DNA of 64,000 bases from an uncultured Enterobacteriaceae bacterium (lineage in GTDB: Bacteria > Myxococcota_A > UBA796 > SXON01), in the NCBI GenBank assembly GCA_964457335.1, contig CAYWGD010000026.1, positions 2,534 to 66,533 on the forward strand, in the 5' to 3' direction. The position numbers and the translations under genes are program-made. A model generated the notes under the pieces. That model was not told the origin of the DNA, ran no database searches, and was given only the letters and a program-made list of their open reading frames with translations. Below, in pieces: positions 9,391 through 35,821 of this stretch (its first letter is position 1; each line of letters starts with the position of its first letter).

Positions 9391-9452
9391 CTGGTTTCGG
9401 GACGTAGCCGGCCGGCAGTTCGTGGCACACTGACCGGACGCCGGAGTGACCG

Positions 9453-16042: not shown

Positions 16043-17234
<1,192 letters not shown>

Positions 17235-17431
17235 GTCGGACTCGGGGAGGAAGCCGATGATACCGCGAATCACGTCGCGGCTGGCTCCGGTCCCCCCATC
17301 CGGGGGGACTTCCCTCCGGCCCGGCCCGGGCGTAGACTGACCTCGTCATCACCTTCGCCGGTGACCGGCGGCCACGGACCCCCGCGGGGGAACACGGAGC
17401 CCGCGCCCGTGGACGCAAACGGCACTCTGCT

Positions 17432-18256: not shown

Positions 18257-18376
18257 CGCGCCCGGCTCTATCCCGCCTCCGAGGTGCGTCGCCGCCCGGC
18301 GGCCCCCGGCCCCCCCTGTCCCGTCTCCGGCTCGCCGGCTACAGTTCGCGACCGGAGGTCCGATGTCGCGAGCGGC

Positions 18377-19090: not shown

Positions 19091-19132
19091 CGCGGACCCC
19101 GCGGCGCCCTCGCGTCCGCGATAGACGCGCGC

Positions 19133-19627
19133 ATGCGCACGCTCCTGCTCCTCCCCCTCCTCGCCGCCTGCGCGGGCGACGAGGGCGGCCCCGCCTCCAC
19201 CTGCACCGACGCCGACTCCCTCGCCGAGGGCGTCGTCACCGCGACCGTGTCCGGCTCGACCTGGGAGAGCGACGCGACCTGGCTCTGGCAGGGCGAGAGC
19301 GTGCAGATCACGGCCGCCGCCGCCGACGGGTGGAACATCACCTTCGTCGGGCGCACGCTCGCGGACGGGACCACCGTGAAGGCCGCGGCGGACGCCGGGA
19401 GCTTCCCGATCGAGGTCGTCCTGGCCGAGGGCGGGGGCGGCTGGGCGCTCGCCTACCCGAGCGACGGGGACTCCTACTCCACGGACGCGGGGAGCGGCAC
19501 GCTCGTCCTGACGGGGCTCGCGGACGACGTCCTCGCGGCCTGCTTCGACTTCGTGGCCGCGCGTGAGAACGGGGACGAGGTCGAGGTCGTCGACGGCGCC
19601 GTGCGGGCCGTGCCCTTCGAGATGTGA
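19133..19627 (+). CDS. Hypothetical lipoprotein
   Basis: MRTLLLLPLLAAC lipobox; codon usage typical of the host. Confidence 0.7.
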   Translation: MRTLLLLPLLAACAGDEGGPASTCTDADSLAEGVVTATVSGSTWESDATWLWQGESVQITAAAADGWNITFVGRTLADGTTVKAAADAGSFPIEVVLAEGGGGWALAYPSDGDSYSTDAGSGTLVLTGLADDVLAACFDFVAARENGDEVEVVDGAVRAVPFEM

Positions 19628-19720
19628 CCCGCGCCGCCGGCCGCGCCCCCTTCCCGAGGCGCCGCGGGGGGCCTATCTCCCCGTTGCCGGGCTCGGTTCC
19701 GGCGCGCTCGGGGGGACGCA

Positions 19721-20770: not shown

Positions 20771-22959
20771 GCGAGGCCGAAGACGAACCGACCCTCGCGC
20801 CCGCCCCTCCGCTCGAGCTGCCGCACGCGCTCGGCGTCTCCCGGCTCGTCCTGTCGCGCGGGAACACGTTCCTCGTGACCGGCGCGGCCGGGAACATCGC
20901 GCCCGCCGGCGCCCGCGAGCTCGGCCTGTTCCATCGCGACACGCGGCACCTCTCCGCGTACGAGCTCGCGCTGCCCGGCCCGCCGCCCACGCTGCTCTCG
21001 TCGGAGACCGAGTCCGCGCTGACCTCGCAGATCGACCTCACCACCACGGACGAGGAGTTCGGCGGGCTCCTGGACGAGCCCATCAACTTCCTGCACGTGC
21101 GGCGCCGCCAGCTGCTCGACGGCGACTTCGTCGACCACATCGCGCTGACGAACCACCTCGGCCGCCCGGTCGAGTTCAGCTTCGAGGTGCACTTCGGGGC
21201 GGACTTCGCCGACATCTTCGAGGTGCGCGGCGCGCGGCGCGCCGGCCGCGGGTGGATCCGCCCCGCGGAGGTCGGGACGGACTCGGTGCGCCTCGGCTAC
21301 CGCGGCCTCGACGGCGACGACTACGTCACCGCGCTGCACTTCACGCCGGCCCCGACCATGCTCCTCGCGGATCGGGCGCGGATCCACGTCTCGCTCGCCC
21401 CGGGCGCCACCTTCAACCAGGAGGTGCTCGTCCGCTGCTGGCGCGGGGCCCGCCCGTCCGACCGGCCGCGCCGCTCGTTCGCCACGCGGCTCTCCGTGGT
21501 GCGCGGCGAGATCTGCCACTTCCTCGGGGACAACACGCGCGTGCGCTGCGACAACGAGCTCGTGCAGCGCGCGCTCGAGCGCTCCATGGCCGACGTGTAC
21601 GCGCTCCGCGTCCAGGAGGCCGATCGCTGGGTGGTGGGCGCCGGCATCCCCTGGTTCGCCGCGCCCTTCGGGCGCGACTCGCTCATCACCTCCGCCCAGG
21701 TGCTCGCCTTCGCGCCGAACCTCGCCGCGGAGACGATGCGCTTCCTCGCCGCCTTCCAAGGCCAGGAGCACGACGCCTTCCGCGAGGAGGAGCCGGGGAA
21801 GATCCTCCACGAGCTGCGGCGCGGCGAGATGGTGCGCGCCGGCGAGATCCCGCACGCGCCCTACTACGGCTCCGTCGACAGCACGCCGCTCTTCGTCGTC
21901 CTCGCCGGCGAGTACATGCGCTGGACGGGGGACATGTCCCTGCTGGACGAGCTCTGGCCCACCATCCGGGCGGCGATCGCCTGGCTCGACGCGAACACGG
22001 CCGAGGGCTCCGACTTCCTGCGCTACGAGTGCAAGAGCCCGCGGGGCCTGCGCAACCAGGGCTGGAAGGACAGCCGCGACGGCGTGCCCCACGTGGACGG
22101 CGCCTCGGCCGAGCCCCCGATCGCGCTCGTCGAGGTGCAGGGCTACGCGGTGGACGCCTGGCGCCACGCGGCCGCCCTCGCCCGGCTCCGCGGCGACGCG
22201 GAGAACGCGCGCATCTGGAGCGAGCGCGCCGCCTCCTTCGGCGTGGCGTTGGAGCGGGCGTTCTGGCTCCCCGAGGAGGACTTCTACGCGCTCGCGCTCG
22301 ACGGGCACGGCCGGCAGGTCCGCACCATCACGTCGAACCCCGGGCACCTCCTCTGGAGCCGCGCCATCGGCGAGGAGCGCGCGCGTCGGGTCGTGGGGAT
22401 GCTCCTGTCCCCCGAGATGTACTCCGGGTGGGCCATCCGCACGCTCAAGCGCGGACAGCGCCCCTACAACCCCATCAGCTACCACAACGGGAGCGTGTGG
22501 CCGCACGACAACGCCATCATCGCGCTCGGGATGGCGCGGTACGGCCTCGGCCGCACGGTCAACAAGGTGCTCGGCGGGCTCCTCGCCGCCACCGAGCACT
22601 TCGCCCACCAGCGCCTCCCGGAGCTCTTCTGCGGGATGGAGCGCGGCGAGCGCGAGTTCCTCGTGCACTACCCGGTGTCGTGCAGCCCCCAGGCCTGGGC
22701 GGCGGGCGCGCTGCTCATGGGCGTCCAGGCCGCGCTCGGCCTCGACCCCTGCGCGCTGGAGGGCCGCCTGCAGATCCGCAACCCCCGCCTCCCGCCGGGG
22801 GTGGGGTCGCTCGAGCTGCGGGACATGCGCGTCGGCGCCGCGCGGGTGGACCTGCGCTTCGTGCGCGTCGGGACCCACACCCACGCCGAGGTGCTCGACA
22901 TCCGCGAGGGGCCGATCCGGGTGGAGATCGAGGTCAGCCCGGCGGGGCGCGCGGACTAG
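20767..22959 (+). CDS. Amylo-alpha-1,6-glucosidase / glycogen-debranching-type glycoside hydrolase
   Basis: ATGA overlap with GT4. AGIPWFAAPFGRDS, EEPGKILHELR, YYGSVDSTPLF, NQGWKDS, YHNGSVWPHDN, RLPELFCG, CSPQAWA. Confidence 0.9.
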   Translation: MSEAEDEPTLAPAPPLELPHALGVSRLVLSRGNTFLVTGAAGNIAPAGARELGLFHRDTRHLSAYELALPGPPPTLLSSETESALTSQIDLTTTDEEFGGLLDEPINFLHVRRRQLLDGDFVDHIALTNHLGRPVEFSFEVHFGADFADIFEVRGARRAGRGWIRPAEVGTDSVRLGYRGLDGDDYVTALHFTPAPTMLLADRARIHVSLAPGATFNQEVLVRCWRGARPSDRPRRSFATRLSVVRGEICHFLGDNTRVRCDNELVQRALERSMADVYALRVQEADRWVVGAGIPWFAAPFGRDSLITSAQVLAFAPNLAAETMRFLAAFQGQEHDAFREEEPGKILHELRRGEMVRAGEIPHAPYYGSVDSTPLFVVLAGEYMRWTGDMSLLDELWPTIRAAIAWLDANTAEGSDFLRYECKSPRGLRNQGWKDSRDGVPHVDGASAEPPIALVEVQGYAVDAWRHAAALARLRGDAENARIWSERAASFGVALERAFWLPEEDFYALALDGHGRQVRTITSNPGHLLWSRAIGEERARRVVGMLLSPEMYSGWAIRTLKRGQRPYNPISYHNGSVWPHDNAIIALGMARYGLGRTVNKVLGGLLAATEHFAHQRLPELFCGMERGEREFLVHYPVSCSPQAWAAGALLMGVQAALGLDPCALEGRLQIRNPRLPPGVGSLELRDMRVGAARVDLRFVRVGTHTHAEVLDIREGPIRVEIEVSPAGRAD

Positions 22960-23152
22960 GAACGGGTGCCGATCCGCGGCGGGATCGGCGAGGTCGTCCT
23001 CGGCGCTCGGGCAGCCGGCCCGCCCGAAGACGGGCGGCCGCCGCGGCGACGTCGGCGCGGGGAGCGATCGCAGGCGGCTCCGTGCCCGGTCGCGCTACGA
23101 TGGGCGGAGGAGGTCCTCCCTGCTCGAGACCGGCGAGGAGCGTCGCGACCGG

Positions 23153-23623
23153 ATGAACCGCGAGGAGCGCGAGGAGCACCGCCGCTGGCGGCGGCGCCGG
23201 CGCCACTCCGGCACCCACGCGCTCGGGGGGCTGATCGCGGGGCTCTTCCTGACCGGCGCGGGCGTCGGGCTCTACGCCGCGGCGCAGGGGGTCGAGCTCC
23301 GGGCGCAGCGGGGCGAGCTCGCGGACAGCCTCGGCTCGCTCGTCACCGCGCTCCGCTCCTACGAGGCGGCCAACGGGCGCTACATCTCGGTCGGCAGCCC
23401 CGTCGAGGCCTACGACGCGCTCGACGCGGGCCGGGCCTACGCCCCCGCCGACGTGCTCGGCTGGCGCGCGGACGGCGTGCGCGGCGTGTACTGGGTGCTC
23501 GGCCGGGAGAACAGCTTCGAGGCCCACGGCATGCTCGACGCCGACGGCGACGGCCTGCCCGCGCACTGGATGGCGACCGAGTCCCGGCCGCCCTACCCGA
23601 TCACGGACGACGGGGTGTACTGA
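23153..23623 (+). CDS. Type IV pilin-like protein with degenerate N-terminal motif
   Basis: Basic leader ending in Gly, hydrophobic segment, then RAQRGE...L..L.TA..SY.....RY in pilin register; C-terminal FEAHGMLDADGDG. Confidence 0.55.
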   Translation: MNREEREEHRRWRRRRRHSGTHALGGLIAGLFLTGAGVGLYAAAQGVELRAQRGELADSLGSLVTALRSYEAANGRYISVGSPVEAYDALDAGRAYAPADVLGWRADGVRGVYWVLGRENSFEAHGMLDADGDGLPAHWMATESRPPYPITDDGVY

Positions 23624-25605
23624 TGGCTCGTCTCCTCGCGCGCGCCGGCGCGGTCCCCCTCGCGCTGCTCGCCGCCTGCATCGACTACAACCCGACCGGA
23701 AAGCCGGAGGACTCGGTGCCGTGGGGCATCGACGACACGGAGCCCCCCGACAGCGGCCCGCCGGACACGTCCGACGACACCGCGCCGCCGCCCGAGGAGT
23801 CGTGCGACGGCGTCGACAACGACGGCGACGGCGAGGTCGACGAGGGCTTCCCCGACGCGGACGCCGACGCGGTTGCGGACTGTGTGGACACCGAGTGTGT
23901 CGTCGCGCTCGACGGGGACGAGGCGGTGTCGGACACGTACACGTGCACGAACGTCGTGGCGCCGCCCGCCGACCCCTGGAACGTGGAGCTGATGTGGGAG
24001 GCGGACCCGATGGTGACGTGCCGGTTCGCCGCGGTCGCGGACCTCGACGCCGACGGCACCGTCGAGATCGTCTGCACCGGGGCGTACGAGGGGGACCGGG
24101 CGTGGGTGCTGGACGGGGCCACCGGCGCGATCGAGGCGCGCTGGGACGTCTTCCGCGAGGAGTCGCACGTCGCGATCGCCGACCTGGACCGGGACGGCGA
24201 CCTGGAGGTCGTCGGCTTCGACCCGGACTTCTACCCGGTGGTGGTCGACGCGGCGGGCGCGCCCGTCTGGCGCGGGGCCATGGCGCTCGCGCAGGGGACC
24301 TACTCCTCGCACCTGGAGATCCGCGATCTCGGCGCCGACGGCGAGCCGGAGGTGGTCACGCACAAGGGTGCCGTCCGCGGGACCGACGGCGCCGTGGTGG
24401 GCCGCTTCGACGCCTCGGGCGAGGCGCAGCCCCTCGAGTTCCAGATCGCGGCGGAGGACCTCGATCTCGACGGTGATCTCGAGCTCGCCTACCAGTGGTC
24501 CGCCTGGGACACGGCCAGCGGGCTCCTCTGGCAGGTGCGGCCCTCGGGGTCGGACCACGGCTTCGCGATCCCCCTGCCCGTGCAGGCCGACGCGGACGAC
24601 GAGGCCGAGCTCTTCTGGACCACGATGGACCACTTCCAGCTCGCCGAGGCGGACGGCACGGTCGTCGACGGGCGCGCCTACTCCGGCACGGACGCCACGA
24701 CGGTGTCGGTCCCGTGCGCGGGCGACATCGACGGGGACGGCGAGATGGAGGTGGTCAGCGTCGGCTCGAACGCCTTCCACGCCTGGAGCGCCCTCGGCGA
24801 GCTGGAGTGGACGGTCCCGATGCTCGACGAGACGCCGAACTGGGGCGGCTGCACCACCTTCGACTTCGATCTCGACGGCGCGAAGGAGGTCGTCGCGCTC
24901 GACCAGGACGCGGTCTACGTGCTCGACGGCCGCACCGGCGCCACGCTCGTCCGCGCGGACGACGGCTTCGACTCCGCGACCATGGGGGACCAGCCGCTCG
25001 TCGTCGACCTCGACGGGGACGGCTCGGTGGAGATCCTGGTCACGAGCCCGTCGACCCTCTACGACACAGCGCTCCACGCCTGGCGCAACGTGAACCGCGA
25101 CTGGCCGCCCGGCACGCAGATGTGGCCGTCGGCCACGTGGTCCGGCACGAGCCTGCTGCCCGACGGGCGCGTGCCGCGCACGCCGCATGCGCCGTGGCTG
25201 ACCACGCAGGTCTGGCGCGGCCAGCCCGAGGCGCCGGTGTTCGGCGCGGACCTGCGGCCCGTGGTGGGGGACACCTGCGTGGCGTCCTGCGCGGACGACG
25301 GCGGCGAGGTGCGCGTGGAGGTGCGCCTGGAGAACCTCGGCCCCGACGAGGCCGAGGCGGGCGCGCCGCTCGCGGTGTACGGGCTCGACACCGGCGGCGG
25401 GCGCGTGCTCCTGTCGGTCCTGACGCTCCCCGACTGGCTCGACGACGGGCGCGCCGCGGCCTCCTGGGAGGTGGTCACGACCACGGAGCAGGCGAAGCGC
25501 GGCCTCGTCTTCGTGGCCGGGGACGACGGCACCGGCTCGTTGGTGTCCGACGACTGCGAGACGGGCAACAACGAGCTCACGTGGGTGCTCACGGCCTGTC
25601 CGTAG
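23623..25605 (+). CDS. Lipoprotein with one MopE repeat, FG-GAP/VCBS repeats and a C-terminal CARDB-like domain
   Basis: TGATG overlap with the upstream gene; LALLAAC lipobox; ESCDGVDNDGDG; repeated DLDxDGxxEIV; C-terminal V.LENLGP...E...GNNEL. Confidence 0.8.
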   Translation: MARLLARAGAVPLALLAACIDYNPTGKPEDSVPWGIDDTEPPDSGPPDTSDDTAPPPEESCDGVDNDGDGEVDEGFPDADADAVADCVDTECVVALDGDEAVSDTYTCTNVVAPPADPWNVELMWEADPMVTCRFAAVADLDADGTVEIVCTGAYEGDRAWVLDGATGAIEARWDVFREESHVAIADLDRDGDLEVVGFDPDFYPVVVDAAGAPVWRGAMALAQGTYSSHLEIRDLGADGEPEVVTHKGAVRGTDGAVVGRFDASGEAQPLEFQIAAEDLDLDGDLELAYQWSAWDTASGLLWQVRPSGSDHGFAIPLPVQADADDEAELFWTTMDHFQLAEADGTVVDGRAYSGTDATTVSVPCAGDIDGDGEMEVVSVGSNAFHAWSALGELEWTVPMLDETPNWGGCTTFDFDLDGAKEVVALDQDAVYVLDGRTGATLVRADDGFDSATMGDQPLVVDLDGDGSVEILVTSPSTLYDTALHAWRNVNRDWPPGTQMWPSATWSGTSLLPDGRVPRTPHAPWLTTQVWRGQPEAPVFGADLRPVVGDTCVASCADDGGEVRVEVRLENLGPDEAEAGAPLAVYGLDTGGGRVLLSVLTLPDWLDDGRAAASWEVVTTTEQAKRGLVFVAGDDGTGSLVSDDCETGNNELTWVLTACP

Positions 25606-25708
25606 GCCTCACCGTCGGACGGGTCGAACCACCTTCGCGGAGCCGTCGGCACCCGCGCCTGCTCCACGAGCGGGTCGCCTGATACGATGCGGCGGCTTGG
25701 AGGCGAGG

Positions 25709-27223
25709 ATGCACCTTGATGAGCGGCGGCTGCGCGGCCTGCTCCGGACGGCGATACGCGGCGACGAGGCCGAGTGGCTGAGCCTGGCGGCCTGGTGCTA
25801 CGCGACCGCGTGGGTGGGCCGGATGTTCGGCCCCGTGCCGCTGCGCGTCCCGTTGCCCGAGCCGGACCCCGACGACGAGCCGCGGGGCGAGACCGCCGTG
25901 GAGATCTTCGAGGAGCTCGTCGCGCGTCCCCTCGACACGGAGGTCGCGCGGCACGTCGCGTGTCTGCAGGTGCTCCGCGCCGTCGATGCCCAGCTCGCGC
26001 GCGTGGCGCCCGGCTACCGGCAGCGCGTGCCGTTGCCGCCCGAGGGTGGGCACTCCGGCACCGTCGAGATCCGCAAGGCGCACTGGTCCACGATGCGGGC
26101 GCTCCGGGAGGAGTACGCGCCGCGCGGCCACGGCCGCATGCGGTACGACACGCTCCCCGGGGACGTGCTCCGCCACCTCCGCTTCCACTGGGAGGAGGCG
26201 CCCGAGCGGGAGCTCGTGCTCCACGATCACGAGCGGGACGACGACGACGCGCTCCTCCGGCTCGAGCCGGTCGTCACCCAGGTGGACGCCGCGGCGTATC
26301 GCGTCGCGCTCTGCCCGCTGCTCGGGGCGGCGCCCCGCTTCGTCACCCGCCAGACCGCGTCCGACGGACTGCACGACCACTTCCGGGCCCTCGACCACGA
26401 CCCCCTGCGCCAGGGCGCGGTCGACGCGCTGCTGGCGGAGGCCGCGAAGACCGGCGTGGGGGTGGTCGTCCTGCCGGAGCTCGGCGTGCGGCCGAGCGAT
26501 GGCGATCTGCGGCGGTGGCGGGGGAAGGTGCGGCTCCTGGTCGCCGGGAGCTGGCACGTCGGGGGGGACGAGGCCCCGGCGAACCGGGCCCCGGTCGTGG
26601 GGCGCCGCATCCTGTGGCGACACGACAAGAGCGGGGAGTTCCGCCTCCAGAAGAAGTACGTCCGCCGCCCGCTCTTTCCCGACGCCCCCGACGTGTCGCT
26701 GCTCGACGAGGAGGTGGAGGAGCGCATCCGCCGCGGGCGGCAGCTCCGCACGCTCGACTCCGCGGTGTGGGGCCGTTTCGGGATCGCGATCTGCGCCGAC
26801 GTGCTCTCGCCGAACGGCGCACGCGCGTGCCTGCACGACGCGCAACGCAGGGTGGACACGCTGTTCGTGCCGTCGCTGTCCCCCGACACGGACGGCTTCG
26901 TGAGCTTCGCCCAGGAAGCGGCCGGCGTGGGGCTCTCGCTCCTCTACGTCAACAACGGCGTGGTGCTCGAAGGCGCCGCCGCGCCCGTCGTGCTCGCGTT
27001 TGCCTCGTTGGCGTTCGGCGACAGCGCCGACCCGCCGCTCGTCCGGTGGTCGGCGGTGGGGGGAGCGCCTCGGGACCACGTGGAGGCCTGGAACTGGAAG
27101 GCGAAGGTGTGGGAGCGGATCGACCGGTCGGAGGCCTATCGACTGGACCCGTCGCTCGGGCTCGTGGTGGACCTCACACCCATCCGCCGAAAGCGCTTGC
27201 CTTCAGAAGCGAAGGGAAGATAA
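25709..27223 (+). CDS. Divergent carbon-nitrogen hydrolase (nitrilase-fold) protein with unknown N-terminal domain
   Basis: Catalytic-type motifs VVVLPEL (Glu), LVAGS, WRHDK (Lys) and GIAICADVL (Cys). SD-like GGAGG upstream of ATG 25709. Confidence 0.7.
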   Translation: MHLDERRLRGLLRTAIRGDEAEWLSLAAWCYATAWVGRMFGPVPLRVPLPEPDPDDEPRGETAVEIFEELVARPLDTEVARHVACLQVLRAVDAQLARVAPGYRQRVPLPPEGGHSGTVEIRKAHWSTMRALREEYAPRGHGRMRYDTLPGDVLRHLRFHWEEAPERELVLHDHERDDDDALLRLEPVVTQVDAAAYRVALCPLLGAAPRFVTRQTASDGLHDHFRALDHDPLRQGAVDALLAEAAKTGVGVVVLPELGVRPSDGDLRRWRGKVRLLVAGSWHVGGDEAPANRAPVVGRRILWRHDKSGEFRLQKKYVRRPLFPDAPDVSLLDEEVEERIRRGRQLRTLDSAVWGRFGIAICADVLSPNGARACLHDAQRRVDTLFVPSLSPDTDGFVSFAQEAAGVGLSLLYVNNGVVLEGAAAPVVLAFASLAFGDSADPPLVRWSAVGGAPRDHVEAWNWKAKVWERIDRSEAYRLDPSLGLVVDLTPIRRKRLPSEAKGR

Positions 27224-27246
27224 ATATCTCGACCGACGGAGGAGAC

Positions 27247-28215
27247 ATGTCCGCATCGAGAAAGCCAAAGATAGCAGGCGAGGCAGGGAACCAGCCGTCT
27301 CGCGCGCCGTCGAGCAATCTCGCGGTCCTTACACGGCAGCTTCACGAAGCGCTCCCGGGCACCGGCCACGAGGCTGGGCTGGACGGGTGGCGACGGTACC
27401 GGGACGCGCTCGTCGCCGAGGTGACGCGCGCCGTGGCGCTCGGCAAGCTGGACGTCCCGGCCGAGCAGCACCGGCGCATGAGCGTGTTCCTGGAGTACGT
27501 CGAGGACCACCTGGACGGGGAGGGCGACGCGCGCGCGGCGGCGGTGGCCCTGCGGGAGCTGATCGTCATCCTGGAGGTGCAGGCGCACACGCTCGAGATC
27601 CCTCGGATGGAGCAGATGCTGGAGCACCCCACCGCCTTGCAGCGCCGCGTGCTCGCCGCGTTGTGCAAGGCCGACGCGCCGCTCGACGCGACACGGGTCT
27701 GCGCCCGCCTTCCGCCCGTCGACGCGCCCGCCACCCGAGCGGCGGGGCGTCCCCAGCGAGAGGAGGGGCCGACGCGGGAGCGCGTGTACCAGGTGCTCGA
27801 GGACCTGCGGAAGCTGGGCCTCGTCGTCCGGAGTGACTTCCCGGGCCCGAACGGCCGCCTCACGGCGCACTACCGGCTCTGGGGCACCGGGCGGGAGCTC
27901 TGCGAGCGGGTGGGGATCACCCCCGAAGTAGCTCAATCGGACGAGCGGGGCCCCGTCGGCCTCGTGATCCAGCTGGCGCCCGCCGAGCTCACGGCCTTGG
28001 CGCTCGACCCAGCGACGCCCGGGCGTGACCTCCTGGTGAAACAGGTCCTCTCCATCCTGCGGGTCGAGACCGCCCTGCGCGTCGCCTTCCGCGTCTGCGT
28101 CGCGCAATTCGACGCGGGGGAGCTTCGCGCGGTGGACGGCCTCGGGCGGCAGGTCGAGGCGCACGTGCGGCGGTTGGCAACGCCACCCCTCCAAGAACCC
28201 TCGCGGGGTGCGTGA
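27247..28215 (+). CDS. Protein with central winged helix-turn-helix domain
   Basis: GGAGGA SD before ATG 27247. LQRRVLAALCKA...TRERVYQVLEDLRKLGLVVRS...HYRLWGTG matches a MarR-like wHTH pattern. Confidence 0.6.
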   Translation: MSASRKPKIAGEAGNQPSRAPSSNLAVLTRQLHEALPGTGHEAGLDGWRRYRDALVAEVTRAVALGKLDVPAEQHRRMSVFLEYVEDHLDGEGDARAAAVALRELIVILEVQAHTLEIPRMEQMLEHPTALQRRVLAALCKADAPLDATRVCARLPPVDAPATRAAGRPQREEGPTRERVYQVLEDLRKLGLVVRSDFPGPNGRLTAHYRLWGTGRELCERVGITPEVAQSDERGPVGLVIQLAPAELTALALDPATPGRDLLVKQVLSILRVETALRVAFRVCVAQFDAGELRAVDGLGRQVEAHVRRLATPPLQEPSRGA

Positions 28216-30207
28216 GTGCCCTTCTCAGGGGTCAGCGCCGCGCTCCTGAAATATTTCGACTCGGAGCGCCCCGACACGCAGAAGCTCGTCGACACGCTCG
28301 CCGAGGGGTTCACCGGCTCTTCCGTCTCGCTCTTCTGGAGCCTGCATGGGGTGTTGTACCTGTCCGCGACGACGGACCCCGAGCTGCGTGCCAAGGCGGA
28401 GCGCGAAGACGTTTGTAACGAGCCGGGGGACGGGCTCACCGGGCAGGTGATGGCCACCGGCCGCGCGCTGCGGTTCGTCAACGCGAACGATCCGCTCGAG
28501 GTCGGCCCCGTCGCGCCCGACCGCGCGGGGCCGCTCCACCCCGAGGCGACCGGCCTGGACGGCCGGGTGCAACGGTCCCTGCTCGTGCCCGTCCGGCACA
28601 CCGAGCAGACCCGAGGGGTGCTCCGGCTCTCGCGGAACGCGCCCCACGAACCCTACTCCGCGTCCGACGAGCGCGTGCTCCAGCGCTTCGCCGACCTCCT
28701 GGGCCGCGTGATGGGCGACTTCTGGGAGCTGCAGGTGCTGAGGACGATCTGGCGCGCGCCCAGCTTCTCCGCGATGGTGTCCCACGAGGGAGAGGGCCCG
28801 AAGGGCGCCTCGCGCATCGTCGCCGTCAGCCCCGGGGCCCACGCGCTGATCGGGTACACCGAGGAGCAGCTCGGCGGCTCGCCGCCCTCGAGGCTCTACG
28901 CCGATCGGGACGCCGCCCGGCAGACGATCGGGTTGGCCCGGGCCAGCGGCGCCCCCGTCCGGCTCGTCGCGCGGCGGGAGGACCAGCGGCTCCTCCCGGT
29001 GACGATCCACTACCAGGACGTGGTGAACAGCCTGGTCGTGCCGCCCCAGCGACACACCATCGGCATCGCGTACGACGACACGGCGCGGACGCAGGCCGAG
29101 GCGGTGAACGAGCGCTTCGAGGAGGTCCTGGATGAACTCGACATGGTGTACTTCCGATGGGAGGTCAGCGGCCGTGCGCTCCATCCTTCACGGACGGAGC
29201 GGCGGCTGACGGGATTCCGCCCGGAGGAGCTGCGGGACGTCACCCGCCTGTGGCCGAGCCGCCAGGCTCGCGAAGCGCTCGTCCGGGCGCTGAGGGCGGC
29301 TCCCGATCGGAAGGTCCGCGACCAGGTCGTCCAGCTCAGGCACAAGGACGGCCATCCGCTCATCGTGTCCGCGGACGTGCGCCTCGTCGTGGACCCCGAG
29401 ACCGGCCGGGAGGTGCTCGAGGGGGTGTACCGCGACATCTCGGACCGCATCGCCCTCCAGCGCTCGCTCGACGCGCCGACGGACCGCCAGCTCCCTGACG
29501 CCGAGCTGCACGAGCGCCTGCTCCATCACCAGGAGGCGCAGAACGCCTTCGTCGCGTCCGTGGGGCACCAGCTGAAGGCGCCCCTCGCGAACGTGCTGGA
29601 CGGCCTCCGCAACGCCCAGGAGGGGCGGATCCCCGGCGAGTTCCTGATGGAGCGGCTCGGCCGGCTCGCGGCGCAGGTCCAGCGCTGCCTCGACATCGTG
29701 CTCGGGCTGTCCATGCTCCACCAGGTGCTGCGCGGGAGCCCGGCCCGGCGCCGATCCGTGACCCTGGCCCGGCTCTGCCGCCAGCTGGCGGACGACTTCA
29801 ACCCCACCCTCCGGAACGCGCGCCTCCGCCTCGACGTGGAGGTCGGGCCCCAGGTCGTCGTGCAGGCCGACCCGGACCTGCTGCGTCAGATCCTGTACAA
29901 CCTCCTCGACAACGCCGTGAAGTACTCCGATACGGGCACGACGATCCGCGTTCGCGCCAACGTGACTCCCCCCTGGGTCGACGTCATGAACCGGGGGCTC
30001 CCCATCGAGGGGAGCGAGCGGGAGCGCGTGTTCGAGCGGGGCTACCGGCTGGTGCAGGCCCGGGCGGTGCAGGCGCAGGGAACGGGGCTGGGCCTGTGGC
30101 TCGCGCGCGAGTTGTGCCGCGCGATGGGAGCGAGCGTCTCGTTCCTGGAGGAGTGGGAGGGCAGCGATCGGTGGAACGTGTTCCGAGTGACGTTCGAGCG
30201 GAGGTGA
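28216..30207 (+). CDS. Cytoplasmic GAF-PAS-PAS sensor histidine kinase
   Basis: GAF-like GDGLTGQV...SLLVPV...GVLRLS; PAS-like LIGYTEEQL and LTGFRPEEL; H-box VGHQLKAPL, N-box NLLDNAVKYS, G2 GTGLGL. Confidence 0.88.
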   Translation: MPFSGVSAALLKYFDSERPDTQKLVDTLAEGFTGSSVSLFWSLHGVLYLSATTDPELRAKAEREDVCNEPGDGLTGQVMATGRALRFVNANDPLEVGPVAPDRAGPLHPEATGLDGRVQRSLLVPVRHTEQTRGVLRLSRNAPHEPYSASDERVLQRFADLLGRVMGDFWELQVLRTIWRAPSFSAMVSHEGEGPKGASRIVAVSPGAHALIGYTEEQLGGSPPSRLYADRDAARQTIGLARASGAPVRLVARREDQRLLPVTIHYQDVVNSLVVPPQRHTIGIAYDDTARTQAEAVNERFEEVLDELDMVYFRWEVSGRALHPSRTERRLTGFRPEELRDVTRLWPSRQAREALVRALRAAPDRKVRDQVVQLRHKDGHPLIVSADVRLVVDPETGREVLEGVYRDISDRIALQRSLDAPTDRQLPDAELHERLLHHQEAQNAFVASVGHQLKAPLANVLDGLRNAQEGRIPGEFLMERLGRLAAQVQRCLDIVLGLSMLHQVLRGSPARRRSVTLARLCRQLADDFNPTLRNARLRLDVEVGPQVVVQADPDLLRQILYNLLDNAVKYSDTGTTIRVRANVTPPWVDVMNRGLPIEGSERERVFERGYRLVQARAVQAQGTGLGLWLARELCRAMGASVSFLEEWEGSDRWNVFRVTFERR

Positions 30208-30209
30208 GC

Positions 30210-30644
30210 ATGCGCGTCCTGCTGGTCGACGACGAGGCGTACGACATGGAGTGGATCGCGGACCTGGTCAGCAGATCCGGGCACCAACTGGTCGTGGCGA
30301 CGAACCGGGCCGACGGCGAACGTCGTCTCCGCGAGCACGCCCGCGGGGAGCGCTTCGGTCTCGCGATCATCGACGTGATGATGGCGACCCACGGGCTGTC
30401 CGAGCTGCGCGAGTGGAACGCGCAGGTCGCGGCCAACTCGATGCGGTCGGGGCTCGACCTCATCGCGTTCGCCCGTCGCGAGCTGGGCATCCCCGCGAGG
30501 GACCTGCCGATCTTCTGCTACACCGCCCGCGACGACGTCGAGGACGAGGCCGTCGCCCTCGGCTCCGAGTACTTCGCCCGGGACGGCTCCCCGGCGTTCC
30601 GGGACCGGCTGAAGCAGTTCCTGGGCCTCGAGAAGACCCCGTAG
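30210..30644 (+). CDS. Single-domain response regulator (atypical receiver)
   Basis: MRVLLVDDE, IIDVMM, FCYTA. The beta5 Lys appears to be replaced by Arg (EYFAR). Confidence 0.8.
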   Translation: MRVLLVDDEAYDMEWIADLVSRSGHQLVVATNRADGERRLREHARGERFGLAIIDVMMATHGLSELREWNAQVAANSMRSGLDLIAFARRELGIPARDLPIFCYTARDDVEDEAVALGSEYFARDGSPAFRDRLKQFLGLEKTP

Positions 30645-30652
30645 CGCCCCGA

Positions 30653-31306
30653 TCAGAGATCGCCGCACCCCGCCGCCCCGTCCACCCGCCACATCGCGAA
30701 GGTGCTCCGCGACGGGTCGGGGCGCGTGTCGGGGGTGAAGTCGAAGAGGGGATGGCTCGCGCCGAGCGTGGCCTGACGCTGCTCGAGGAGGACCACGCGC
30801 CCCTCGACGCGGTCGGGGCCGACGAGCGCGCCCTCCAGCCGGCTGTGCCCGCGCTGGGCGACCCACACCTCGGCCGCGCCGAAGCCGGGCACCACCACGC
30901 GCACGGTCGCGCCGGGCTTCCCGTCGCGGTCGGCGTCGACGACGTGGGGCTCGTCGGCGCGGGCGGGGAGATCGCCGCGGGCGGGGTCGTAGCCGACCAC
31001 CTGCACGCCGGTGTCGGCCCGCCACGTCCAGGTGTCGCCCGCGCGCGTGAGCTCCACCGGGTAGGTGCGGTCGGGGAGCGCCGCGCGCCAGCCGTCCGGG
31101 AGCGTCGTGCGCGCGAGCTTCGTGCCGCCCTCGAGCACGGTGTTGCACACGGTCTGGCGCTGAACCCAGCCGTCGCCGTCCCGGGTGACGCGCACGAGCA
31201 GGGTGCTCCGCGACGCGCTCCGCGTCTCGCCGAACAGGGGCGCCCGGGTGATCGCCGCCACGACCACCTCCAGGGCCCAGGTGCCGCCGAGGTCCACCAC
31301 GTCCAT
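30653..31306 (-). CDS. Hypothetical protein, translationally coupled to the acyltransferase
   Basis: ATG at 31306 overlaps the upstream TGA (TGATG). Plausible protein MDVVDLGGTWALE... Confidence 0.6.
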   Translation of the reverse strand: MDVVDLGGTWALEVVVAAITRAPLFGETRSASRSTLLVRVTRDGDGWVQRQTVCNTVLEGGTKLARTTLPDGWRAALPDRTYPVELTRAGDTWTWRADTGVQVVGYDPARGDLPARADEPHVVDADRDGKPGATVRVVVPGFGAAEVWVAQRGHSRLEGALVGPDRVEGRVVLLEQRQATLGASHPLFDFTPDTRPDPSRSTFAMWRVDGAAGCGDL

Positions 31307-32037
31307 CACGCGCTCCGGCTGAAGAGGGAGAGGAGCCGCGCGCCGAGGCCGCGGTCGGTCCGCGACGAGGCGGAGGCGACGATGGGGAAGAAGCCTGCCG
31401 AAGCGGGGGGGGGCGTTGCGGGGGGGCTCGGCCCCCCCGCCCCAGGATCCAGGAACCGATCCACCACCTCCAGGCCCGCGACGAGCGCTTCTTCGAGCCG
31501 ATCGGCGGGGACCGGCGAGCCGAGGTGCACGAGCGCGGCGGGTCGGTCGCCCTCCCGGAAGGTGTAGGTGAGCGCCACCGGGACGATGGGGGCGCCGCTC
31601 GCGCGGGCGACGAGCCCGACGCCGGGCCGGATGCCGAGCGGCCGGAGCCACGGCGGCCGCTGTCGGCCCTGCGGGAAGATCCAGACCGCGCGGCCCGGCC
31701 GGTCGAGCACCGCCGCCGCGGCCCGGAGCCCCGCCCGCGCCGCGAGCCCGCCCCGGTCGAGCGCGAGGGCGCCGACGGAGCGCAGCCAGGGGAGGCGCCG
31801 GAGCGTGGAGGCCTCGACGAGCACGTGGCCCTCGGCGCCCAGGGCCTCGTCCACGAGCAGCATGACGAGGCCGTCCCACCACGCGACGTGCGTGGCCGCG
31901 AAGACGACGGGGCCCTCGGCCAGCCGCGCCCGCGTCTCGGCGAGCCCCGCGACGTACACGCCGTCGAGGCCCCGGCGCACGCGCCACCGGGTGTACAGGC
32001 GCCAGGCGGCGACCGCGAGCGGGCTCCGGGCGCTCAC
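31306..32037 (-). CDS. PlsC-like acyltransferase, probable carotenoid glucoside acyltransferase (CruD-like)
   Basis: THVAWWD (HxxxxD), WIFPQG, PIVPVAL. GTGA overlap with the GT2 gene; adjacent to crt genes. Confidence 0.8.
   Translation of the reverse strand: MSARSPLAVAAWRLYTRWRVRRGLDGVYVAGLAETRARLAEGPVVFAATHVAWWDGLVMLLVDEALGAEGHVLVEASTLRRLPWLRSVGALALDRGGLAARAGLRAAAAVLDRPGRAVWIFPQGRQRPPWLRPLGIRPGVGLVARASGAPIVPVALTYTFREGDRPAALVHLGSPVPADRLEEALVAGLEVVDRFLDPGAGGPSPPATPPPASAGFFPIVASASSRTDRGLGARLLSLFSRSA
31403..31444. repeat. REP-like hairpin GGGGCGTTGCGGGGGGG-CTCGG-CCCCCCCGCCCC (copy 1)
   Basis: Near-identical to 49085-49121; 9-bp stem at 31418-31440. Confidence 0.65.
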
Positions 32038-33137
32038 GCCGTACGCTCGTGCCGCGGGCGGTACGCGCGCCCGCGCCACCGGATGACCCCGCGGCGGCTC
32101 CACGCCCACGAGTTCACGGCGAGGGCCAGCATCCACGCGATGCCGACGGCGTGGAGCGGCACGGTCCAGGGCGCGTGCCCGAAGCGCGCCGCGAGGAGCG
32201 CGCGCTGGGCGAGGTTCGCGGCCACGCCGACCGCGGCGGGCGCGGGCGCGAAGGGGAGCGCGAGCCAGGGGAGGAGGAAACACGTCACGTGGAGGGCGAG
32301 CGTGGCGACGAGCGCGGCGGGGGTGCCGCCGATGCCCTCGTAGAGGTTCTTGGAGAAGCCCTCCCAGGCCTCGCGCCCGCTCCGGTACATCCGGCAGCGG
32401 GCGATCGCGGCGCCGTCCACGAAGTCGACGCGCAGGCCCGCCCGCTTGGCCGCCCGGCACAACGCCATGTCGTCGACGACCTCGGTGGCCACGGCCCCAT
32501 GCCCACCGAAGCGCGCGTAGGCGTCGCGACGGACGGCGAGGAGCTGGCCGTTGGCGGCGAGGAAGCGGGGGTCGCGGGTGGCGCGCACGAGCGGGAGCGG
32601 GAGCCAGGAGAGGTAGGTGAGGTGCAGGAGCGGCAGCACGAGGCGCTCCGCGGCGCTCCCGGCCTCCTGGCGGGGGAGGAGCGAGACGACGTCGGCGTCC
32701 ACGGCGGCGGCGGCGATGCCGGCGAGGGCGCCGGGGGCCAGCACGGTGTCGGCGTCGACGAAGACGAGCAGGTCGCCGGTGGCGGCCGCGGCGAGCTGCT
32801 GGCAGGCGTGGGGCTTCCCGACCGCGCCGCGCGGCAGGGGGCGGCCGGTGATCACGCGCAGGCGCGGGTCGCCGGCTGCGAGGGCCGCGAGGATCGCCGG
32901 GGTGCCGTCGGTGGAGCGGTCGTCGCAGACGATCACCTCGTCGAAGGGCTCGGCGAGCAGGGCCTGCACGCAGCGCGCGATGCCGCGCTCCTCGTCGCGG
33001 GCGGGCACGAGCGCGCTGGCCCGCGTCCGGGGGGCGTGCGCAGGCTTTGCGGCGGCCGGCCGCCACGAAGCGAGGTTGAACAGGGTGAGGGCCAACGGGA
33101 GGGTTGGCGGAAGTGCGAGCAGGAACCAGGAGATCAC
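32034..33137 (-). CDS. Glycosyltransferase family 2, probable carotenoid glucosyltransferase (CruC/CrtQ-like)
   Basis: LVPARDEE, DDRSTDGT, GKPHAC, LVFVDAD, ANGQLL, DDMAL, CRMY. Divergent from crtE. Confidence 0.85.
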   Translation of the reverse strand: MISWFLLALPPTLPLALTLFNLASWRPAAAKPAHAPRTRASALVPARDEERGIARCVQALLAEPFDEVIVCDDRSTDGTPAILAALAAGDPRLRVITGRPLPRGAVGKPHACQQLAAAATGDLLVFVDADTVLAPGALAGIAAAAVDADVVSLLPRQEAGSAAERLVLPLLHLTYLSWLPLPLVRATRDPRFLAANGQLLAVRRDAYARFGGHGAVATEVVDDMALCRAAKRAGLRVDFVDGAAIARCRMYRSGREAWEGFSKNLYEGIGGTPAALVATLALHVTCFLLPWLALPFAPAPAAVGVAANLAQRALLAARFGHAPWTVPLHAVGIAWMLALAVNSWAWSRRGVIRWRGRAYRPRHERTA

Positions 33138-33166
33138 GGACCCTCCGCCGTCGAGACCCCTTGGGG

Positions 33167-33195
33167 TTGCAGGGTCTCCGAACACCGTGTATATG
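33167..33195 (+). promoter_or_regulatory. Sigma70-type promoter for the crtE operon
   Basis: TTGCAG-N17-TATATG; SD GGAGG at 33231-33235. Confidence 0.6.
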
Positions 33196-33227
33196 CTTTG
33201 CACTGGCTTTGAACAAGTTGTGCAAGG
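33184..33227 (+). promoter_or_regulatory. CarH-type operator: four tandem 11-bp direct repeats
   Basis: ACCGTGTATAT / GCTTTGCACTG / GCTTTGAACAA / GTTGTGCAAGG fit the nnnnTnnACAn CarH repeat; a carH-like gene lies in the operon. Confidence 0.75.
33188..33216 (-). promoter_or_regulatory. Sigma70-type promoter for the GT2/acyltransferase operon
   Basis: Minus strand TTGTTC-N17-TATACA; the -10 box overlaps that of the opposite promoter. Confidence 0.5.
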
Positions 33228-33239
33228 CCCGGAGGACGA

Positions 33240-34304
33240 ATGCTCCAGCCCTCGAACCGCCGCTCGGCGGCCCGCTCCCCGGCCGCCCCTCCCCTGGACC
33301 CGCAGGAGGTCGACCCCCTGGGCCTCTGGGCGGACGACGCGCTCTCCGAGGTCGAGGACGTGATGAGCCGGCTCGCGGTCGGCACGCGGCTCGAGCGCTC
33401 CGGCCACATGGTGCAGGAGCACCTCGCGACGGGCGGCAAGCGGCTCCGGGCACGGCTGGCCCTCGCGGCGGTCGAGGCGATGGGCGGCACCCGCGCCCGC
33501 GCCGTGGGCTGGGCCGCGGCCTGCGAGCTCGTGCACAACGCCACGCTCATCCACGACGACTTGCAGGACGGCGATCGCGTCCGGCGCGGCCGCCCGACCA
33601 CCTGGGTGCGGCACGGCGCGCCGCAGGCGATCAACGCGGGGGACCTGCTCCTCATGCTGCCGTTCCTGGCAGTAGACGCGGTCCCCGCGGACGGCGATGT
33701 GCGCTGGGGCCTCGCGCGGGCCATCGCCCGCCGGGCCGAGGCGACGGTGCGCGGCCAGTCGCTGGAGCTCGACCTGCTCGGGGGCCGGCGGACCGACTGG
33801 GAGACGTGGCTGCGCGCGACGGAGGGCAAGACCGGCGCGCTGCTCGCGCTCCCCGTGGAGGGGGCCGCGCTGCTCGCGGGGCTCTCGCCCGACGCGGCGG
33901 CGCACATCGCGCAGGACTTCGTGCGCATCGGCGTCCTGTTCCAGGTCGCCGACGACGTGCTCGACCTCTACGGCGACAAGGGCCGCGGCGAGCGCGGCAA
34001 CGACCTCCGCGAGGGCAAGGTGAGCGCGCTCGTGGTCGAGCACCTGCGGCTCCACCCCGCCGACGCGCCCTGGCTCCTCGCGCTGCTGGAGGCGCCCCGG
34101 GAGCTCACGCCGGACGGGGAGGTCGCGACGGCGATCGAGGCGTTCCAGGTCGCGGGCGCCTTGGCGGCGGTCGTCGACCGCTTCGAGGTCCTGGCGCGGG
34201 CGGTGCACGACGCGCCGCTCTTGCGGGCCGTGCCGGACCTGCACGCCGTGGCCCTCGAGCTCGTCGAGCAGATCCGATCCACGCTGCCGGCGGTGCGCTC
34301 GTGA
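33240..34304 (+). CDS. crtE: Geranylgeranyl diphosphate synthase (polyprenyl synthetase)
   Basis: FARM LIHDDLQD, RRGRPT, SARM FQVADDVLD, GKRLR. Confidence 0.88.
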   Translation: MLQPSNRRSAARSPAAPPLDPQEVDPLGLWADDALSEVEDVMSRLAVGTRLERSGHMVQEHLATGGKRLRARLALAAVEAMGGTRARAVGWAAACELVHNATLIHDDLQDGDRVRRGRPTTWVRHGAPQAINAGDLLLMLPFLAVDAVPADGDVRWGLARAIARRAEATVRGQSLELDLLGGRRTDWETWLRATEGKTGALLALPVEGAALLAGLSPDAAAHIAQDFVRIGVLFQVADDVLDLYGDKGRGERGNDLREGKVSALVVEHLRLHPADAPWLLALLEAPRELTPDGEVATAIEAFQVAGALAAVVDRFEVLARAVHDAPLLRAVPDLHAVALELVEQIRSTLPAVRS

Positions 34305-35821
34305 GCGCGCGGCCGTACGTCGTGGTCGGCGCCGGCTTCGGCGGCCTCGCGGCCGCGGTGCGCCTTCGCGCGATGGGCCACCCCGTCGTCGTGCTGGAGG
34401 CCACCGACCAGCCCGGCGGGCGCGCGAGCGTGTTCCGGCAGGACGGCTTCACCTTCGACGCCGGCCCGACCGTCATCACGGCGCCCTACCTGGTCGACGA
34501 GCTCTTCGCGCTCGTGGGCCGGAACGCCGCCGACTACTACGAGCTGATGCCGGTCGACCCGTTCTACCGGGTCGTGTTCCCCGACGGGTCGAGGTTCGAC
34601 TACGTGGGCGAGGAGGAGCGGATCCTCGCCCAGATCGCGGCGATGTCCCCGCGGGACGTGGACGGCTACCGCAAGCTCGCCGCCCAGGCGAAGCGCATCT
34701 TCGACGTGGGCTACACCCGGCTCGTCGATCAGCCCTTCGACCGGCTCTCGGACATGCTCCGCGTCGCCCCCGACATGATCAAGCTGCGGAGCTTCCGGTC
34801 CGTGTACGGGCTCGTGTCGTCGTTCATCGAGGACGAGCGGCTCCGGCAGGTGTTCACCTTCCAGCCGCTGCTCGTGGGCGGGAACCCCTACGCGACGTCC
34901 TCGATCTACCTGCTCATCCACTGGCTCGAGCGGAAGTGGGGGGTGTGGTTCCCCAAGGGCGGCACGGGCGCGCTCGTGACCGCGCTCGTGCGGCTCCTGG
35001 GCGAGCTCGACGTGCCCGTGCGGCTGAACAGCCCGGTCGAGCGCATCGAGGTGGAGAACGGGAAGGCCGTCGCGGTGCGGCTCGCGGGCGGCGAGCGCGT
35101 GCCCTGCGCGGGCGTCGTGAGCAACGCCGACCCGTCGTTCGTCTACAAGCACCTCGTCGACGGGGCGCACCGCCGCACCCACACAGACGCCGCGGTGGCG
35201 CGCAAGAAGCCGTCGATGAGCCTGTGGGTGGCCTACTTCGGCGTCGACCGCACGTACGAGGACGTGGCGCACCACACCATCCTCCTCGGCCCCCGCTACA
35301 AGGGGCTGCTCGACGACATCTTCGAGAACAAGGTCCTCGCCGAGGACTTCTCGCTCTACCTGCACCGCCCCACGGCGAGCGACCCGAGCCTCGCGCCCGT
35401 GGGCAAGGAGGCGTTCTACGTGCTCTCGCCGGTGCCGAACCAGCGGAGCGGGCTCGACTGGGACAACGCCCTCCCCGCGTACACGGACCGGATCATGTCG
35501 TTCCTCGACCGGGGCGCGCTCCCCGGCATCAAGGGCTCGATCGCGTCGATGAAGACGATCGACCCGCGCTACTTCGCGAACCAGATGCGGTCGGTGGACG
35601 GCGCGGCGTTCGGCATCGAGCCGACCCTGCTCCAGTCGGCCTGGTTCCGCTACCACAACCGCTCCGAGGACGTCGACGGGCTCTACTTCGTCGGCGCGAG
35701 CACCCACCCCGGCGCGGGCGTGCCGGGCGTGCTCAACTCCGCGCGGGTGCTCGAGAAGGTGGTGCCCCGGCCGGCGTCGCCGATCTCCGTCCCACCGGCC
35801 CTGCGGATCGTCGCGTCCTGA
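34301..35821 (+). CDS. crtI: Phytoene desaturase
   Basis: VVGAGFGGLAAA, FTFDAGPTVITAP, LLVGGNP..TSSIY.LIH.LER.WGVWFPKGG, GLYFVGASTHPGAGVPG. Confidence 0.93.
   Translation: MSARPYVVVGAGFGGLAAAVRLRAMGHPVVVLEATDQPGGRASVFRQDGFTFDAGPTVITAPYLVDELFALVGRNAADYYELMPVDPFYRVVFPDGSRFDYVGEEERILAQIAAMSPRDVDGYRKLAAQAKRIFDVGYTRLVDQPFDRLSDMLRVAPDMIKLRSFRSVYGLVSSFIEDERLRQVFTFQPLLVGGNPYATSSIYLLIHWLERKWGVWFPKGGTGALVTALVRLLGELDVPVRLNSPVERIEVENGKAVAVRLAGGERVPCAGVVSNADPSFVYKHLVDGAHRRTHTDAAVARKKPSMSLWVAYFGVDRTYEDVAHHTILLGPRYKGLLDDIFENKVLAEDFSLYLHRPTASDPSLAPVGKEAFYVLSPVPNQRSGLDWDNALPAYTDRIMSFLDRGALPGIKGSIASMKTIDPRYFANQMRSVDGAAFGIEPTLLQSAWFRYHNRSEDVDGLYFVGASTHPGAGVPGVLNSARVLEKVVPRPASPISVPPALRIVAS

Follow-up and report, generated by a model that had tools for sequence, protein, structure and literature searches.

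The 64-kb stretch of contig CAYWGD010000026.1 analyzed here (hereafter the window) carries four consecutive genes, g1 to g4, that encode a nitrilase-fold protein, a partner protein with a putative winged helix, a soluble histidine kinase, and a single-domain atypical receiver, respectively. At ~75% G+C, the window gives open reading frame (ORF) lists that are crowded with spurious frames, and the four real genes, all on the plus strand, were picked out by their G+C content at third codon positions (GC3) and by homology (Table 1). An earlier reading of this DNA from its letters alone (the sequence-only reading) had described four co-directional genes with gaps of 23, 0, and 2 nt and had proposed that they form an undescribed, signal-gated stress or defense module; the coordinates agree with these gaps.

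Table 1. Coordinates of the g1-g4 genes and of features in related loci (L numbers); positions are those of the window unless a locus is named
Feature	Coordinates	Strand	Description
g1	25709-27223	+	504-aa translated ORF, ATG eight bases past GGAGG
g1 catalytic tetrad codons	26477-26794	+	Glu257 (26477), Lys307 (26627), Glu338 (26720), Cys362 (26792)
g2	27247-28215	+	322 aa, GGAGGAG ahead of start
g2 putative winged helix	27634-27921	+	~residues 130-225
g3	28216-30207	+	663 aa; Pfam-matched soluble histidine kinase
g3 domains	GAF 22-165; PAS 199-264 and 319-411; HATPase_c 552-660 (residues)		HisKA with His451 (codon 29566)
g4	30210-30644	+	144 aa; single-domain atypical receiver
Low-GC junction	27080-27370		g1 3' end, 23-nt spacer with GGAGGAG, and g2 5' end
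L026, g2-KGGVGR ATPase fusion	8684-10669		C-terminal fusion
L027, g2-KGGVGR ATPase fusion	~1734-4004		C-terminal fusion
L033, g2-KGGVGR ATPase fusion	2815-4644		C-terminal fusion
L047, g2-KGGVGR ATPase fusion	4562-6172	-	C-terminal fusion
L003 conflict-gene stretches	1918-9396; 13547-20921		
L007 conflict-gene stretches	8073-9862; 16128-20082		

The g1 protein comprises a new N-terminal domain (residues 1 to ~190) followed by a nitrilase-superfamily domain (residues ~193 to 490). The window protein scores below the gathering cutoff of the Pfam CN_hydrolase family (PF00795; 18.9 versus 23.2 bits) and matches no NCBIfam model, and its first ~190 residues have no match among Pfam families, NCBIfam models, or PDB sequences, in keeping with the unrecognized domain of this size that had been placed ahead of the catalytic residues. 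Nothing credible was returned when PDB sequences were searched with a profile of the N-domain, and g1 alone gave no match to them. Word-index homology searches with g1, g2, or the g1 alignment returned essentially the query alone, having probably been swamped by Ala/Arg-rich words, whereas 118 g1 relatives (cluster representatives) were recovered when 1.84 billion representatives were searched exhaustively with HMMER. These relatives are mostly 470 to 570 aa long and thus have the two-domain length in common. CN_hydrolase was matched by 35 of 48 relatives at an E value of ≤0.01 (best E, 2.9e-9). Alignments of 48 and 82 family members show no variation at four residues, Glu257, Lys307, Glu338, and Cys362, so that the Glu-Lys-Cys triad noticed in the sequence-only reading is present and is joined by Glu338.

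An AlphaFold2 model of g1 based on the 82-sequence alignment had a predicted local distance difference test score (pLDDT) of 85.4 and a predicted template modeling score of 0.89; the alignment was needed, as the single-sequence prediction was unusable (pLDDT, 34). When the model was compared with the PDB by Foldseek, its C-terminal two-thirds, a four-layer alpha-beta-beta-alpha nitrilase fold, matched Nit3, Nit2, and amidases at a probability of 1.0, with E values down to 1.2e-9 and 12 to 18% identity. The best match was yeast Nit3 (1f89; E, 1e-9; TM score on the target, 0.60). The modeled N-domain consists of four helices, a beta-hairpin, and a short helix-strand unit, and BFVD gave just a generic phage CN hydrolase for g1. 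Given its nitrilase fold and invariant Glu-Lys-Glu-Cys tetrad, g1 looks like an active enzyme of its own family.

The genomic contexts of g1 relatives were gathered in two ways: individual relatives were looked up, and a 12-sequence subalignment of the family was used to pattern-scan the genomes of GTDB and the metagenomes of JGI. Hidden Markov models for g1, the g2 core, the kinase, the receiver, and a ParA-like domain were run over the six-frame ORFs of all loci. Homologues of g2, an orphan by word-index searching, were recovered from these loci, and g2 adjoined g1 in all 24 distinct loci with room for this to be tested (duplicates removed, window included). The order g1-g2-kinase-receiver was found again in L009 (near copy, L020), L010, L011, L012/L023, L014, L015/L021, L022, L024, L029, L031, and L034. 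L026 has the same order, receiver included, but with g2 fused to a ParA-like ATPase; L027 has a g2-ATPase fusion followed by a kinase, inside which the contig ends; and L047 has the same gene set with g1 on the opposite strand (divergent). The four-gene loci, ~12 beyond the window, belong mostly to metagenome-assembled genomes (MAGs) of Thermoanaerobaculia and other Acidobacteriota and to soil and other metagenome contigs. Their g1 proteins are 25 to 28% identical to that of the window, and the flanking genes differ at every locus and are conserved in none. Because the order recurs at this level of g1 identity among unrelated flanks, these comparisons support the view that the four genes form a conserved functional unit rather than a chance neighborhood. 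The co-occurrence elsewhere that had been named as a check on the sequence-only reading was thus observed, although what is invariant is narrower than the proposed four-gene module: judged by the loci compared, g1 and g2 are the invariant core, and the kinase with its receiver is one of several interchangeable third modules.

In a crude neighbor-joining tree of g1, the kinase type occupied several deep branches, which implies that the association is ancient or was assembled more than once; the window g1 grouped with that of L002, which is of the ATPase-TPR type described below. The distribution of the family is patchy across phyla. In the Acidobacteriota MAGs L009, L010, L011, L014, and L015, the GC3 of the module was 0.67 to 0.78, compared with 0.85 to 0.96 for its neighbors, which suggests that these bacteria acquired the module by recent horizontal transfer and argues that it is horizontally mobile. 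The corresponding difference in the window was small (0.89 to 0.95 for the module versus 0.94 to 0.99 for the flanks).

The gene that occupies the third slot, after g2, varies among the relatives. L002 and L007 (a Competibacteraceae MAG) encode a 760- to 795-aa protein with an N-terminal variant ParA/MinD-like ATPase domain bearing a KGGVGR motif (NCBIfam NF047398; E, 1e-35 to 4e-40) and with TPR repeats, and L048 encodes an 872-aa protein with this ATPase domain and without Pfam-detected TPR repeats. In L033, a KaiC-like ATPase follows the g2-ATPase fusion. The third gene of L003 encodes a SecB-family protein (Pfam E, 7e-10), giving the gene order of toxin-antitoxin-chaperone (TAC) modules; in L004 the slot holds a 142-aa protein of unknown family, and L045 and L046 have other small or extended partners. 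Since g2 is fused to the ATPase in L026, L027, L033, and L047, a Rosetta-stone link, these fusions provide direct evidence for g2 as the putative docking point of the third component.

The g2 protein itself consists of an N-terminal helical domain, the putative winged helix, and a C-terminal tail of ~95 aa. The helical N-domain (~125 aa) is conserved across the family (alignment A5), which upholds that part of the earlier description of a winged helix-turn-helix between unknown helical regions, whereas the evidence for the winged helix consists solely of subthreshold matches. Window g2 matched PadR with an E value of 0.024; among PDB sequences, the family profile matched only Fur and PadR chains, and these weakly (E, 0.05 to 1); and the winged-helix segment gave weak PadR, Fur, and BlaI-type matches. 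The presumed recognition helix carries an invariant Arg and Gln, and the wing is conserved (G-N-x-x-A-x-F-Y-A-L-S). The tail differs according to the third component, with the kinase-type g2 proteins having a common tail domain of ~100 to 170 aa that is missing from the shorter types. None of 11 g2 family members matched PADLOC.

In g3, Pfam detected GAF, PAS_9, HisKA, and HATPase_c domains. A Kyte-Doolittle scan found no membrane segment (highest 19-residue mean, 1.08), in agreement with the earlier description of a kinase lacking transmembrane segments. The H-box His451, the N-box Asn566, and the G2 box GTGLGL at residue 622 are conserved in all six kinases aligned. The adenine-binding Asp of the G1 box (DxGxG) is Asn592 in g3 (29989-29991) and Asn or Ser in five of five orthologues, and the motif reads N/S-x-G-x-P, with the second Gly changed to Pro, in all six proteins (window, L009, L010, L011, L014, and L015). 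This change may reflect altered nucleotide use or weak kinase activity. g3 is 34.5% identical to the L009 kinase over 666 aa (E, 4e-106), and g4 is 39% identical to the L009 receiver (E, 2e-23); judged by these alignments, the window kinase and receiver are true orthologues of those in the four-gene loci. The L011 kinase (10888-13434, Thermoanaerobaculaceae MAG) matches the profile in three successive reading frames, which indicates assembly frameshift errors or a decaying gene.

The g4 protein scored 21.1 bits against Pfam Response_reg, under the cutoff of 30.2 bits and over residues 3 to 60 only, and its NCBIfam match was likewise confined to the N-terminal half. A profile of 14 g4 orthologues nevertheless matched CheY and RR468 chains (E, 1.6e-4). 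g4 retains the acidic pair Asp7/Asp8, the invariant phospho-acceptor Asp55 (codon 30372), and Thr105; the conserved Lys position of receivers is Arg124 in g4 and Lys or Arg in the orthologues (14-orthologue alignment), and ~25 aa are inserted past strand 3. Unlike a classical response regulator, g4 is a receiver alone, without an output domain.

Several relatives of the non-kinase types lie beside conflict genes. The neighbors in L003 encode a CHAT protein, an MmeI-type restriction-modification enzyme, a DUF7002 protein, a helicase-DUF1998-PLD trio (DISARM-like), and an HNH protein; those in L007 include fvmX1/2/3/7, bpMoxR, AAA ATPases, Uma2, and PIN/MazE; and L004 has a PLD/NgoFVII endonuclease, L046 a TIR protein and GT4-conflict, and L045 HTH+M78 and PLD proteins. 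Most kinase-type loci, the window included, are not in recognizable defense islands. The defense-island setting that the sequence-only reading had proposed as a check was seen for some relatives and not for most loci with the window's gene order.

We compared the module with known systems. Its proteins matched the signature proteins of no system in PADLOC-DB v2.0.0; for g3 and g4, the only match was to a generic HATPase (PDC-M43B), on g3. Within the g1 family, the PADLOC matches were weak and confined to the nitrilase domain: 19 of 48 members matched RTasNitrilase (best E, 7.9e-9; window protein, 5e-3) and 13 of 48 matched CARF-nitrilase. The literature on nitrilases in anti-phage, histidine kinase, conflict-system, CARF, defense-island, and KGGVGR contexts yielded no description of the g1-g2 pair.

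Detocs is a two-component defense system with a kinase (DtcA), a stand-alone (buffer) receiver (DtcB), and a receiver-effector (DtcC) (10.1101/2023.01.24.525353). The module resembles it in assembling a kinase, a stand-alone receiver, and an enzymatic effector in a compact operon, in the modularity of effectors and sensors, and in the implied logic, by which phosphotransfer would gate a harmful enzyme. For the kinase and receiver, the resemblance to DtcA and DtcB is one of form only. Unlike in Detocs, the window effector carries no receiver domain, so that the lone g4 is the only receiver: the g1 N-domain had no Response_reg match in Pfam, NCBIfam, or PDB sequences, and its model is a helical bundle with a beta-hairpin, not a five-stranded receiver. 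The module further differs from Detocs in its obligatory winged-helix partner, in sensing by GAF-PAS rather than TPR domains, in an effector with a nitrilase fold rather than a PNP ATP nucleosidase, and in that the kinase and receiver are dispensable in its relatives. Membership in Detocs was rejected, the effector being without a receiver.

A nitrilase domain of unknown substrate is the defense effector of DRT1 (PMC13275509), and the nitrilase of class 3 UG/Abi reverse transcriptases (RTs) is a presumed effector with an intact tetrad and an equally unknown substrate (PMC13275509, PMC13436386). g1 shares the nitrilase-superfamily domain and intact tetrad with the DRT1, UG5, and RT-associated nitrilases; it differs from the class 3 proteins in having its own N-domain and in the lack of an RT from the module. 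No RT family was matched in the four proteins (Pfam, PADLOC, and NCBIfam) or among the annotated neighbors of relatives, as had been noted for the window from its letters, and membership in DRT class 3 was rejected for want of an RT. Assignment to the CARF-nitrilases, type III CRISPR ancillary proteins, was likewise rejected for want of a CARF domain, since the window g1 match (E, 7e-4) covered nitrilase residues 342 to 416 only and no CARF match was seen.

In TAC modules (HigB-HigA-SecB-like), a SecB-like chaperone holds the antitoxin tail (PMC5105189, PMC6377645), and in TAC systems that sense phage, chaperones of this kind gate the antitoxins (10.1101/2024.02.24.581848). L003, with an effector, an HTH-like partner with a C-terminal tail, and a SecB-family protein, resembles these modules, including in the concept of a third protein acting on the tail of the partner. 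In contrast, the window has no SecB-like gene (only L003 has one), and neither g1 nor g2 is related to HigB/HigA or to any other TAC pair. MinD/ParA-like domains that are predicted to be inactive recur in vWA-MoxR conflict systems (Kaur et al., PMC7159879); the NF047398 domains of L002, L007, L026, L027, L033, L047, and L048 resemble these KGGVGR conflict ATPases, whereas the window has no such domain and the vWA-MoxR core is not part of the module.

With the Nit and amidase branches (Nit2, Nit3, aliphatic amidases, and N-carbamoyl hydrolases), g1 has in common the fold and the Glu-Lys-Glu-Cys chemistry. It differs from them in its 12 to 18% identity, its extra ~190-aa N-domain, its lack of an NCBIfam model, and its obligatory linkage to g2 and sensor modules. 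That g1 clusters with ordinary metabolic amidases, which the sequence-only reading had named as an outcome that would count against it, did not hold: this identity was ruled out by the distinct family of ~118 representatives, with its own N-domain, no NCBIfam model, and g2 always adjoining. Detocs, class 3 DRTs, CARF-nitrilase, and TAC each have defining features that the module lacks. It would best be placed with the modular effector-plus-sensor conflict systems, a known type, as one that is built from two unannotated families (the g1 N-domain and g2).

Taken together, these comparisons firmly establish a self-contained module, with an enzyme-partner core that does not vary, a sensor or regulator that can be exchanged, and a full set of catalytic residues in the enzyme, and make it a credible candidate for a new stress or anti-phage system. 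The reading that we prefer, and to which we give about even chances, is that of a mobile, signal-gated, toxin-like hydrolase system in which g1 is restrained by g2, itself the target of the kinase and receiver. g1 would be a latent C-N hydrolase, with its nitrilase domain packed against the family-specific N-domain, and would probably be harmful once released. g2 would be its dedicated partner: the conserved helical domain would bind g1 and keep it inactive, the winged helix may autoregulate the operon, and the variable C-terminal tail would offer a handle for the third component, which in the window would be the cytoplasmic GAF-PAS-PAS kinase g3 with the single-domain receiver g4. An intracellular cue would alter autophosphorylation of g3 at His451, the phosphoryl group would move on to Asp55 of g4, and phospho-g4 would act on g2 or on the g1 N-domain so that the hydrolase is freed or activated. 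The hydrolase would then destroy an essential amide- or nitrile-bearing metabolite or modify a protein, and growth would stop. The overall logic would be akin to abortive infection or toxin-antitoxin systems, a likeness drawn because the family combines an effector and a DNA-binding-like partner with diverse third parts, a patchy spread, and occasional location in defense islands. A more specific proposal, that g1 and g2 represent a new anti-phage (abortive-infection) family with an RT- and CRISPR-free nitrilase effector and a sensor slot filled by several modules, is one that we put forward tentatively; if it is true, the window version would be a second kind of two-component immune system after Detocs, with a receiver that acts in trans on an adaptor.

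Several observations weigh against a toxin-like or defensive role. The window's own flanks are biosynthetic, consisting of carotenoid, glycan, and lipoprotein genes. Around five Acidobacteriota loci of the kinase type, most of the 47 flanking ORFs encode housekeeping products, such as EF-hand, AMP-binding, aminotransferase, and glycosyltransferase proteins; the defense-like entries amount to a single CHAT-TPR protein and a few weak hits to PADLOC. No relative was found in IMG/VR viral contigs. The g1 family resembles generic CN_hydrolase (35 of 48 members; best E, 2.9e-9) at least as closely as it does the defense nitrilases (19 of 48; 7.9e-9), which qualifies the parallel with DRT1 drawn in the sequence-only reading. 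The winged helix of g2 is subthreshold, and with the G1-box Asp replaced in all six kinases, ordinary ATP-dependent activity is not assured. Finally, the metatranscriptome signal from the module, described below, may be DNA carry-over. The proposal of a signal-gated stress or defense system is partly supported, by the conserved unit, the distinct g1 family, and the defense neighbors of some relatives, while the window and most kinase-type loci lie outside defense islands.

The same genes can be read as a regulatory or metabolic unit without any role in conflict, in which the kinase phosphorylates g4, and g4 together with g2 forms a split response regulator that switches on the amidase g1, which would degrade or mature a small molecule (a signal, secondary metabolite, or nitrogen source). 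Most two-component systems and winged-helix proteins regulate transcription, the closest named matches of g4 are OmpR-family receivers, two g2 homologues gave weak Trans_reg_C matches, and in structure g1 comes closest to metabolic amidases and Nit proteins; the housekeeping or biosynthetic flanks of the window and most kinase-type loci also fit this account. However, the g1-g2 pair persists without the kinase and receiver, in the company of KGGVGR ATPase-TPR, KaiC-like, and SecB-like proteins, all of them atypical as metabolic regulators; the module is accompanied by no transporter or pathway gene, and its flanks are conserved nowhere. Since several relatives also lie within defense islands and the family is patchily distributed and has no NCBIfam model, we regard a purely regulatory unit as rather unlikely, if deserving of serious consideration.

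An addiction or stress module of the toxin-antitoxin kind, with g1 as toxin, g2 as labile antitoxin, third parts that tune the antitoxin, and no specific anti-phage role, would account for the strict linkage of the pair, the variable g2 tails, and the mobile, patchily distributed behavior of the pair, and the effector-partner-SecB-like order of L003 mirrors that of the HigB-HigA-SecB TAC (PMC5105189, PMC6377645). We nonetheless consider it unlikely, as g1, with 504 aa and two domains, is far larger than typical toxins and the elaborate sensors (GAF-PAS kinase and TPR ATPases) suggest recognition of a specific cue; moreover, TAC and many toxin-antitoxin modules themselves defend against phage, so that this explanation overlaps the toxin-like hydrolase system that we prefer. 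The idea that the genes are chance neighbors and g1 a decayed or ordinary amidase could draw on the sub-cutoff Pfam score of window g1 and on the word-index searches that found no relatives, but it is exceedingly improbable, being refuted by the 118 relatives of the same two-domain length, the invariant tetrad, and the four-gene order in a dozen distant loci.

Under either the defensive or the regulatory reading, two protein families (the g1 N-domain and g2) that are currently without annotation come to light. If the preferred reading of a defense or toxin system is true, the module would be a second, independent setting of nitrilase-fold immune effectors and a new wiring of two-component signaling to an effector, via a lone receiver and an adaptor. 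As a small, RT-free system, it may be an easier route to the nitrilase substrate, which is unknown even for DRT1, and its swappable slot would be a natural experiment on the coupling of one effector-adaptor pair to different sensors. If the regulatory reading is true instead, the module would still represent an uncharacterized amidase family whose N-terminal domain is new and which has a split regulator of its own.

The A/T-richer patch that had been noticed around 27180-27350 is real: its GC content of 0.59 over 170 nt, compared with a mean of 0.747 (standard deviation, 0.037), is lower than that of any other among the ~6,400 sliding windows that cover the 64 kb. A promoter and terminator scan of 25300-31000 found no promoter-like or terminator-like site, and neither the low-GC junction nor the region 5' of g1 contains an operator-type inverted repeat, save for a weak 11-nt pair at 25651-25675. 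Several bioreactor metagenomes contain the stretch, and in three metatranscriptome runs from the same studies, short contigs with a depth of 2 to 6 lay on g1 (25862-26669) and g3 (28425-29982), whereas none lay on g2, g4, or the downstream genes. These contigs are weak evidence of low-level transcription of the module.

Annotation of both sides confirmed that the flanks are functionally unrelated to the four genes. Upstream lie genes for a GT1 glycosyltransferase, a GDE-like glycosidase, and an FG-GAP lipoprotein; downstream, convergent genes encode a 217-aa hypothetical protein, an acyltransferase, and a GT2 protein and are followed by a plus-strand polyprenyl synthase gene. The acyltransferase and GT2 genes (minus strand) and the polyprenyl synthase gene (plus strand) are part of a carotenoid-type cluster that adjoins the module at 31306-35818, in which a long ORF (34330-35818) is phytoene desaturase-like by sequence and has no Pfam match at an E value of 0.001. 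A separate gene for a kinase-like protein, which has HisKA and, at its C terminus, a receiver domain, is located 6.6 kb upstream of the module (17336-19087), with no link to the module seen. In DNA contigs of run X1, many alternative joints fall within the FG-GAP repeat gene (23000-25300), and a depth spike occurs at a short G/C-rich stretch near 31407-31444; both probably represent repeats or strain variants in the assembly graph rather than module biology.

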